DNA of 64,000 nt, from contig NC_087245.1 in assembly GCF_037042905.1 (NCBI RefSeq), forward strand, positions 19,160,001 to 19,224,000. Direction: 5' to 3'. This DNA is from Lytechinus pictus. Taxonomy: Eukaryota. Each line of letters begins with the position of its first letter. Within the stretch, counting starts at the first letter, position 1. Positions 3,301 through 51,280 of the stretch are shown piece after piece. Under the pieces are notes generated by a model. It saw nothing but the letters and a program-made list of their open reading frames with translations, made no database searches and was not told where the DNA came from. The position numbers and the translations under genes were made by a program.

Positions 3301-6300
3301 TTACAAGCTTTACCATGGTAGTAGATCAAGACCTTGCTGTTGAGATCCGCCAGGTCTGGATCGTCAACCTGGAACAAGGTTAGTACGTTAGGACCTAGAG
3401 ATGTAGAACAAAGTGAAAGAGGAAGATTCACAAGTTAGTCCTGGGCTCCGTGACACAAAGGTTTGCAATCAGTCGCTAAATACCAGTGACCAATCAAGAT
3501 CATTGTTGCATGCGCATTTTGTTTAAAATACTGACTGGGAGCCAATCAGTGCGATTCTTTCATATTTGCAATTCATCGCAAACCTTTGTGTTACGGAGCC
3601 CTGATGACATTTTTATTCTAGATATAAGCGGGATGTTTTACATAAAAATGAATGGTTTAAATAAAACTCTTGAGCATTCAAGCAGTTCTGAGGAGATAAT
3701 GACAGTTGTTCATCTTATATATTCTTTTAATCCTGTTTTCTTTCTAGCACCAGTGATACTGTTAATTATTTTAAAGATTACCCAAGCACTCTTCTTTCAA
3801 CACATTTATTTATCTGTAAGTTTAAAAAAGAATACCTATCATTATGATCGTTGAATTTAAAACATTCAGACACAAAGGGTAAAAAAAAAAACCAAACAAA
3901 AATTAAAAAATATACTTACCAGCAGCGTAAAGTTTCTTGACCTGTAGTGGGGTCAGGGTATCATAGAACACACAGGCACTGCCCATCTGACCTTGGAGTG
4001 ACCTTGAAGAGCCCCATTCTAAGTATTTCATGTTTGCTGGAACCATGCTCACTGATGAATCCTGGGAAGAGGAATGGAAGGCATCAATTAGTATGTGCTA
4101 CATACAGGAAGACAGAAACAATCCATATAAATGAGCTGCCAAGTGTATAAATAATTGGGCTAAATCCATGATATCAGGGCGCTGTCAGGAAAAAAATATG
4201 TACTCACAATTAAGTGTTACCTTAAGAACATAACAGAGCCCAATAGATTTATCCAATGGCTCTGGCAACATCATTTTCCAAAATTTGACTACAATCTTCT
4301 TCGTATCTACCAGTACTTAATTACAAGCAAAATGTAGTATTGCCCAACAATACAAGCATATTGAAGCCTGCATAAGATGTTACATATGTGATGTGAGAGA
4401 TACATGTACAGAGCATAAACTACTATACTAAAAACAATCCAGAAAATTTGCTGTCATCTTGGTTTACATAACATTTACAAGACCATTGGATATGCGCCGC
4501 AGAGTGAACTCTCAAGAGCTTGCTACATGTTGCCAAATAATGTCAAACCTAAGTTACTGATTACCTGTCTATAAATGCCACATTTTTCTGTTTCTTTAAA
4601 TTTGGATTTTAATTGGACCATTATGAAAGGAAACCTGGTCAAAAGGGCCACTTTCCTCTATAGACGTATTTTCTTGAAAACTTAGAATGGTCTTTATAAG
4701 TACAGGAGCATTTTATCATCATTTTTGTCCAGCAAGTTATTAGATCTGACAACTTTCCTTGATTTTGATTGGCTGAGTATCCCTGTTACTATGGTAACTG
4801 TCAGACCAAACAGGGCTTGTCAGATATAACGTTCGACAAGTCCTTATATGAAAGGCTCCCCAGTTTTTACTGCTATCAATCCCATGATATGACCTTATAA
4901 ATCTATCCTGCTTGATGAATCTTTGCATTGCTATAGACCTTACCTCAGATACAGACTGTGACTGGCCTTTCAAGACCCGCAGGGAAAAGGGCCTCTTGGT
5001 AGTAATGGTGGTTGCTGATGTCGATCGCGGTCTCATACCGGCAGTGGTATCTAGCTCAACATCCTGCTCCAGGGAGTTGAATGACGGTGGTGAACTTATA
5101 AAACTGGAAACAAAAGGCTGTGCAGAAAAACATGAAATAGTATTTAAGTTATGAATTTTGATGAGTGCAATGAATAAAATATTTCATCTTTCACAAAATA
5201 AAGTATTATATCCATTGCGCGAATGAGAAATGAAACAAGTGGAATGCCTCTGGCCGTCTCACCTGCATCACGCGATTCAATATAGCAGCAGTGCTGATTT
5301 TGAAAACTACTATAACTCGCACAAGATGTTCAGTGATACTTGGTTACTCTTATTTCCACGTTTTATGAACTAGACCAATACACTTATAGAGATATGATGG
5401 CAATTCAACAAATACCCCCAACGTGGCCAAAGTTCTTTGACCTTACATGACCTTTGACCTTGATCATGTGACCTGAAACTCGCACAGGATGTTCAGTGAT
5501 ACTTGATTACTATTATGTCCAAGTTTTATGAACTAGACCAACACACTTTCAAATTTATGGCTGTAATTCAACAAATACCCCAATTTGGCCAAAGTTCATT
5601 GACCCTAAATGACCTTTGACCTTGATCATGTGACCTGAAACTTGCACAGGATGTTCAGTAATACTTGATTACTATTATGTCCAAGTTTCATGAATCAGAT
5701 CCATAAACTTTCAAAGTTATGATGGTAATTCAACAGATACCCCCAATTCGGCCAAAGTTCATTGACCCTAAATGACCTTTGACCTTGGTCATGTGATGTG
5801 AAACTCATGCAGGATGTTCAGTGATACTTGATTAACCTTATGTATAAGTTTCATGAACTAGGTCCATATATTTTCTAAGTTATGATGACATTTCAAAAAC
5901 TTAACCTTAGGTTAAGATTTTGATGTTGATTCCCCCAACATGGTCTAAGTTCATTGACCCTAAATGACCTTTGACCTTGGTCATGTGACATGAAACTCAG
6001 GCAGGATGTTCAGTAATACTTGATTAACCTTATGGCCAAGTTTCATGAACTAGGTCCATATACTTTCTAAGTTATGCTGTCATTTCAAAAACTTAACCTC
6101 AGGTTAAGATTTGGTGTTGACGCCGCCGCCGCCGCCGTCGGAAAAGCGGCGCCTATAGTCTCACTCTGCTATGCAGGTGAGACAATAAAACTGCAGAGAA
6201 TGAAAAAATAAAGTGGAGGAAAAAATGATATCATTGTTGGGTTCAAGAAAATACTGCAAGTCATGTCATCCTTGATCTAAAAGAAACAACAATTCAAACA

Positions 6301-51280: not shown

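Follow-up and report, generated by a model that had tools for sequence, protein, structure and literature searches.

Elements of the Tc1/mariner superfamily duplicate the TA dinucleotide that serves as their target, and the three-nucleotide footprints of the Sleeping Beauty type are TACAGTA and TACTGTA. The closest described system is Tc1 of C. elegans. According to PMC4490562, Tc1 breaks carry non-complementary 2-nt 3' overhangs and their germline repair proceeds mostly by HR or polymerase-theta joining; in supplementary data 3 of the same report, the product TACATGTA appears as class L, found in 3/39 polq-1 revertants. The usual somatic footprint in C. elegans is +4 (78%) in PMC13148408, a norm also given in PMC12632400, and TACATGTA is called a rare Tc1 footprint in PMC3520976. 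Methylation may matter as well, as CpG methylation enhances the excision of the IR/DR elements SB, Frog Prince and Minos from plasmids in human cells (PMC3680223). Here we describe the distribution and origin of the same word, TACATGTA, in a window of 64,000 nucleotides (the whole stretch of DNA analysed) and in the surrounding genome.

Distribution of the octamer in the window and the genome

A tblastn search with an NBEAL-type protein (P0009; domains Beach, DUF4704 and DUF4800) places an NBEAL1/2-type gene on the minus strand, and this gene extends leftward about 35-35.5 kb past the left edge of the window (Table 1). The window contains 57 copies of TACATGTA. The original prediction of about 50 copies in the NBEAL introns was borne out, since 56 lie within 4401-49043, and all the coordinates it cited are correct save 37187, which should read 37188. 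None of the 57 sites falls in a matched NBEAL exon (3.1 kb of exon), and the strand lean of the octamer along the gene is weak (p ~0.1, by hand). The single upstream copy that had been noticed, at 60539, is the sole one there and sits in a young mobile element.

The earlier estimate that base composition predicts two or three copies also agrees with Markov models trained on the window, which expect 2.3, 1.6, 2.9, 4.1 and 10.5 copies at orders 0-4, that is, about 2-4 at orders 0-3; orders 5-6 expect 29 and 52 because the motif itself trains the model. With the motif masked from training, the 28-48 kb interval holds 45 copies vs 1.3-2.0 expected, and among all 8-mers of the window TACATGTA ranks third, behind poly-A/T. 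Enrichment over a Markov background, which had been proposed as a check, was found on a larger scale too: 120 hand-picked 10-kb stretches (1.2 Mb) contain 305 copies vs 38.5 expected, with the motif again masked. The genome (811.7 Mb) carries 224,046 copies, or 0.276/kb.

The density is very uneven. Counts per 10-kb stretch are over-dispersed (mean 2.5, variance 8.5 over the 120 stretches). Within the window, the 28-48 kb interval reaches 2.25/kb, and the 13-28 kb interval, where young repeats of high CpG content abound, has 0.47/kb; the values are 0.27/kb over the 3' half of the NBEAL gene and 0.08/kb upstream of it. A preference for transcribed DNA or introns as a simple rule, which the original prediction had put forward, is not supported, as octamers in the 3' half of this very gene are no denser than the genome average. 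Neither intron location nor CpG loss alone is sufficient for the peak, because the 3' NBEAL introns are CpG-poor and yet only average.

Table 1. Coordinates of features in the window (position 1 is the first letter of the window)
Feature	Position	Strand	Remarks
NBEAL1/2-type gene, first coding exon	51230..51280	-	
NBEAL exons	44244-44396, 34773-34892, 30852-30929, 13254-13436, 11235-11408	-	tblastn spans, approximate
NBEAL exons	9509-9748, 8837-9037, 7598-7684, 6937-7167, 6408-6530	-	tblastn spans, approximate
NBEAL exons	3918-4019, 3228-3395, 2654-2815, 886-1023, 189-344	-	tblastn spans, approximate
Range of further matched NBEAL exons	141..44396	-	tblastn
TACATGTA octamer field, 56 copies in NBEAL introns	4401..49043		word count; 0 in matched exons
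Hot domain, 45 octamers in 20 kb	28114..47175		2.25/kb, ~8x genome mean; long CpG-poor 5' introns (CpG o/e 0.38)
TACATGTA in multi-copy inverted-repeat element (about 7721-8343)	7868..7875		clean +6 (CATGTA) at TA
TACATGTATGTA in LINE relic (about 35883-36772)	36534..36545		+9 vs sister copies
Chain TA-CATG-TA-TG-TA-CATG-TA-CAG-TA	15946..15968		putative stacked scars, from sequence
Chain TA-TG-TA-CAG-TA-CATG-TA-TG-TA	41836..41856		putative stacked scars, from sequence
Five tandem TACATGTACATGTA	30094, 35228, 37609, 42198, 45373 (span 30094..45386)		
GG...CC-ended, TA-flanked miniature inverted-repeat element	47808..48284		ends fit TAGGCCTA; another end at 44585
Upstream octamer in young element	60539..60546		common to 97-98% identical copy L221

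Several other repeats were noted in and around the window. A young element with AGGCCCG ends and a TAA duplication, which we take to be PIF/Harbinger-like, lies at 58079-62413 and resumes at about 81041-83930 in window numbering (L033). It is 97-98% identical to the copy L221, is split here by an 18.6-kb stretch that starts with a 20-22-bp tandem array at 62441, and bears an upstream cluster of TAGGCCTA, TAGATCTA and AACGTT palindromes. One 163/192-bp array element is present twice, at 5314-6120 and 17573-18379, the copies being nearly identical and 12 kb apart. A block of A-rich 70-160-bp repeats at 23545-25925, with an internal duplication of ~530 bp, is CpG-rich, lacks TACATGTA and is probably a young insertion. 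The interval 34293-34504 holds an element of ~211 bp with many 95-100% identical copies genome-wide, and elsewhere in the genome a multi-kilobase near-perfect palindrome of AT-rich 31-bp units was seen (L084, G000:C1:33100001-33110000).

Origin of TACATGTA by insertion

We used multi-copy repeats as the outgroup in determining the origin of the octamer, collecting 471 distinct TACATGTA sites in 1.69 Mb and regarding a site as testable if at least two non-identical homologues span it (n=42; part of these sites are not independent, as they lie in the tandem array L223 or in the related units of L218). At 35/42 testable sites the sequence with the octamer exceeds its homologues in length, by exactly six letters in 22 cases and by other amounts (+2 to +12) in 13, while 5/42 show no length change and 2/42 are shorter. 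The homologue consensus at the site is TA in 18/22 of the +6 cases, as judged by eye. The original prediction had suggested looking for a change from TA to TACATGTA by a six-letter insertion, and this is what the paralogous repeat copies display: at testable sites TACATGTA originates by insertion, usually of six letters at TA.

In a motif-blind catalogue of 358 repeat insertions, seven of the 22 six-letter insertions create TACATGTA and one creates TACCGGTA, and three of the nine seven-letter insertions create TA-CA-N-TG-TA. The same catalogue contains no TACATA/TATGTA among 33 four-letter insertions and no TACAGTA/TACTGTA among 17 five-letter insertions. Eight of the 33 four-letter insertions contain TTAA and are possibly footprints of abundant TTAA-flanked elements (TTAAAG... 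ends). At one site with 96% identical copies (L059:1948) the inserted letters are independent of the flank, so they were not templated locally; the palindrome shows no extension beyond eight letters (78 vs 73 at the first position), and this stop argues in the same way against hairpin templating.

The enrichment is specific to TA. Among the 16 words of the form XY-CATG-XY, the TA-bounded TACATGTA is enriched 6.7x and the CA/TG word CACATGCA 0.89x; the others above 2x, CGCATGCG and GCCATGGC, both have low counts. When TA-N4-TA words are ranked with microsatellite words set aside, palindromes come out on top (TAGGCCTA 16x, TACATGTA 6.7x, TAGATCTA 5.1x, TACCGGTA 4.7x; median of all such words 1.1x), which is the form expected from TA, two bases per element end, and TA. 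Genome-wide, TAGGCCTA occurs 66,473 times vs 3,425 for its reversed control. Paralogue alignments, for few sites, make gains of 4/7 TAGGCCTA and 2/3 TACCGGTA; TACACTGTA is a +7 insertion in 2/2 testable cases, and five sites of TAGATCTA were testable. The claim that TACAGTA and TACTGTA recur stands in so far as both are present (11 and 12 copies in the window) and show a weak enrichment, of 1.2x over the 1.2-Mb sample and 2.1x in the 28-48 kb interval, and they occur in chains with TACATGTA and with the same flank bias. It fails for these words as a second main footprint class, since 15/22 testable sites show no length change and +5 was found in 1/22.

Half-sites flanking the TACATGTA scars (n=810) have T at +3 in 50% vs 33% and A at +1 in 17% vs 32%, with a purine at +2 in the scar profile; the control word ATCATGAT likewise has a +3 T of 0.47. 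Targets of the Tc1/mariner superfamily follow the form A-n-n-TA-n-n-T, which the scar flanks resemble. Words one mismatch away from TACATGTA are over-represented as well, their excess relative to that of the exact word being 0.66-0.74 across the 1.2-Mb sample and 0.30-0.38 at 28-48 kb, and this excess points to a long-running process, for which older families are the plain explanation.

Within the window, 7/57 sites have any spanning homologue and 2/57 are cleanly testable (7868 and 36534). At 7868, 40/55 homologues are six letters shorter and their consensus is TA. The TACATGTATGTA at 36534 is missing in 11/11 aligned LINE paralogues and is a compound scar, not a clean +6, while 38465 and 40404 are apparent gains in poor alignments. 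There was no second haplotype among 39 scored genome-search candidates; L221, considered in that role, was rejected as a transposon copy. Orthologous DNA was found neither by protein search nor by metagenome scan. Read contigs from four runs were aligned to 28001-38200, and the indels listed (12 of 303) all come from repeats. As a hint only, a low-depth X12 contig over 28001-28357 is six letters shorter, with six gap letters; no X12 contig over 36570-37887 contains more than one gap, so the eight TACATGTA sites there seem shared, which is again a hint. None of the sequences compared has an element still in place at a scar site.

Stacking, neighbourhood and candidate makers

The tandem copies noticed in the original prediction are present as five TACATGTACATGTA in the window, each of which we take for a scar that was itself hit again at one of its TAs. 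Doubles account for 15/305 in 1.2 Mb, scaling to about 10,000 genome-wide, where 449 triples are found. The stacking rate is constant at 4-5% per step, with no acceleration with unit number, and this steadiness is what repeated hits at the local rate, unlike slippage, would give.

Over 600 two-kb bins, the density of TACATGTA is 0.39/kb at CpG o/e <0.4 and 0.15/kb at >0.8 (rho -0.21), and TAGGCCTA rises with CpG o/e (rho +0.14). Because sequence age confounds the CpG correlation, we compared passenger repeats. Those in hot neighbourhoods have 24 insertions in 79 kb (52 stretches, 11 with any) and those in cold ones four in 114 kb (85 stretches), a ratio of 8.6x (p=2e-6); without the two richest loci (L218 and L223) the counts are 11 vs 4 (4.5x, p=0.007). 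Sorted by surroundings, passenger insertions occur at 0.24/kb in CpG-poor vs 0.06/kb in CpG-rich DNA. Scars thus accumulate in passenger repeats 4.5-9 times faster where the neighbourhood is scar-rich, so the density is set by position, not by selection. Biased insertion, methylation-enhanced excision and repair choice remain candidate causes of this bias.

As for the elements themselves, a family of young Tc1 elements (length 1.9 kb; DD34E, as judged by eye; CAC...GTG ends; ~200-bp terminal repeats; copies 97-99.9% identical) fills 29/30 loci examined and, by score, nearly all of the 150 scored among 729 DDE_3 candidates; TA flanks 43/43 of its ends. Its copies are often head-to-head inverted pairs without a left end (L102-L131, DDE_3 table), with paired transposase matches on opposite strands 0.5-1.3 kb apart, in what looks like a recurrent fold-back rearrangement. 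A second CA-ended, TA-flanked element, the CAGTGCG MITE, is 0.8 kb long and has 3,538 exact ends. Neither has target flanks that match the scars. T stands at +1 in 40% of scars, but in 35/40 ends of the young Tc1 (L104 type; p=8e-8) and in 27/30 of the MITE (p=1e-6), which also has A at +2 in 23/30 (p=6e-5). The flanks of neither are clearly CpG-poor. The proposed Tc1/mariner footprint reading keeps the TA-specific +6 gains and the existence of CA-ended, TA-flanked elements on its side and has the mismatched flanks of these two young families against it; the element behind most scars was not found among the families compared.

Ends that match the sister words were found elsewhere. GG-ended elements have TA at 10/13 ends and match TAGGCCTA, and the CC-ended pogo-type elements L261, L267 and L268 have TA at 7/7 ends and match TACCGGTA. 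No clear CA ends were seen in pogo-type groups among those with resolvable ends (TG and CC were found). A young pogo-type family (L252-L254; 96-98% identical, ~3.8 kb, 514-aa frame) has TG...CA ends at TA; TATGCATA is 1.75x enriched with a +3 T flank bias. The left terminal repeat of the CC-ended pogo-type L262 has a CATGAA gain at TA that resembles a decayed scar. A mariner search with PF01359 gave no match, which says little about mariner presence; PF02992 gave 12 matches, an L117-type transposase had eight matches only and its element ends were not found, and two long CACTG pairs contain no transposase-like frame by eye.

Interpretation and comparison with known systems

Most testable TACATGTA copies are insertions, and we consider it likely that they are excision footprints of Tc1/mariner-superfamily elements whose ends read CA...TG, with repair in the germline and subsequent fixation by drift. 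The scars work like the Tc1 footprint, an assignment made at the level of the class that singles out no family; probably a number of families made them over a long period, with the two young ones compared here contributing at most a lesser share. An element would insert at TA and duplicate it, as seen at 43/43 young Tc1 ends; its transposase may then cleave both ends at a depth of two bases, as happens with Tc1 in C. elegans, so that CA and TG overhangs remain, and filling and blunt-joining of both 2-nt overhangs would give TA-CA-TG-TA. Each scar would supply two new TAs, from which stacks could grow at the constant 4-5% per step, and deposition would be set by the chromosomal neighbourhood, with its peak in CpG-poor, probably methylated long 5' introns. 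The sites that arose without length change (5/42) and those with other lengths (13/42) count against the footprint reading.

In another account, a low-copy or domesticated TA-specific transposase, or one family in rapid insert-excise cycling, wrote most scars because it was directed to the methylated 5' introns of genes active in the germline, so that resident copies are rare and differ from the scars. In its favour, neither young Tc1-type family shares the relaxed +1 and the T at +3 of the scar flanks, scars exceed resident ends ~30-fold or more, the neighbourhood effect is strong, and TAGGCCTA and TACATGTA are opposite in their relation to CpG content (rho +0.14 vs -0.21). We nevertheless regard this account as unlikely: ordinary turnover of many older CA-ended families fits the same data, by our estimate, with the mutation rate taken as 1e-8, ~0.02 new scars per gamete in each generation would be enough to maintain 200,000 copies, words with one mismatch bear the mark of decay (N1/N0 0.3-0.7), and with 150 of 729 DDE_3 candidates scored, families are hidden. 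Rather doubtful, too, is the broader proposition that a TA-specific transposase unlike the visible young Tc1 families wrote ~200,000 uniform six-letter scars, preferentially in methylated 5' introns, that the GG-ended TAGGCCTA (66,473 copies) marks CpG-rich DNA, and that such words form a fossil map of germline chromatin and of fill-in, blunt-joining repair. CACTG-ended elements, presumably EnSpm/CACTA-like and with a 2-bp target duplication, have CA...TG ends (2,471 exact ends), flanks that fit the scars at +1 and +2 (p=0.57 and 0.60) and the +7 TACACTGTA in 2/2 testable cases to recommend them. They are very unlikely sources all the same, as 17/63 of their ends lie at CA/TG and predict CACATGCA, which is not enriched (0.89x), +3 differs from scars (p=0.003) and the DNA around them is not poor in CpG (o/e 0.74). 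Excision of the CACTA type, moreover, proceeds via flank hairpins and is not known to leave element bases, which counts against them as makers.

Explanations other than transposon exit fare worse. Irx/Iroquois prefers TACATGTA according to PMC3520976, where the same word is taken as a binding site in Phytophthora, and the octamers could be putative, selected sites of such a homodimeric factor enriched in regulatory introns, in line with the palindromic word and the peak in first introns. This deserves next to no credence, because dead repeats acquire the sites as +6 gains, at the rate of their surroundings, and because selection explains neither the change in length nor the restriction to TA, and neither the sister palindromes nor the 224,046 copies; some scars could later have been co-opted as factor sites. 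Building of TACATGTA in methylated DNA by CpG decay (from TACGCGTA and TACACGTA) or by replication slippage would suit the negative correlation with CpG o/e, the tandem copies and the 5/42 sites without length change, and accounts for the background of ~13% (38.5 of 305). As the main source it is refuted by the 35/42 insertions and is extremely improbable: CATG is not copied from the flank, stacking shows no acceleration, the precursor TACGCGTA is rare (11 per 1.2 Mb) and 3' introns that are poor in CpG show no enrichment.

Excision does not ordinarily leave a record that can be counted. Should the scars be footprints, one word counts ~200,000 past germline excisions, and transposon exit is the source of about one third of six-letter insertions in the sampled repeats (7/22). 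The word would then also map where transposases act, given the 4.5-9 times neighbourhood effect on neutral passengers, and reveal the germline repair route. Motif finders will call TACATGTA and TAGGCCTA regulatory sites, and this calls for caution. A literature search, with subscription literature outside its reach, turned up no study that describes TACATGTA footprints across the genome of an animal.

The footprint reading can be set beside the known systems. Tc1/Tc3 of C. elegans are alike in that TA is duplicated, two terminal bases are kept per end and TACATGTA is a product. They differ in having +4 as the somatic norm and a varied germline spectrum, whereas here +6 dominates, ~200,000 excess copies are fixed and the neighbourhood bias is strong. 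Sleeping Beauty-type words occur here bounded by TA and in TACATGTA chains; with 1/22 at +5, they are at most a minor class. The methylation effect on SB, Frog Prince and Minos is a possible route to more scars in methylated DNA, and the young Tc1 here has ~200-bp terminal repeats; the target flanks of the young Tc1 mismatch the scars, and methylation is here presumed. Motif-1 of Phytophthora is TACATGTA, the same abundant non-coding word; in PMC3520976 it was read as a promoter transcription-factor site and a footprint origin was dismissed.
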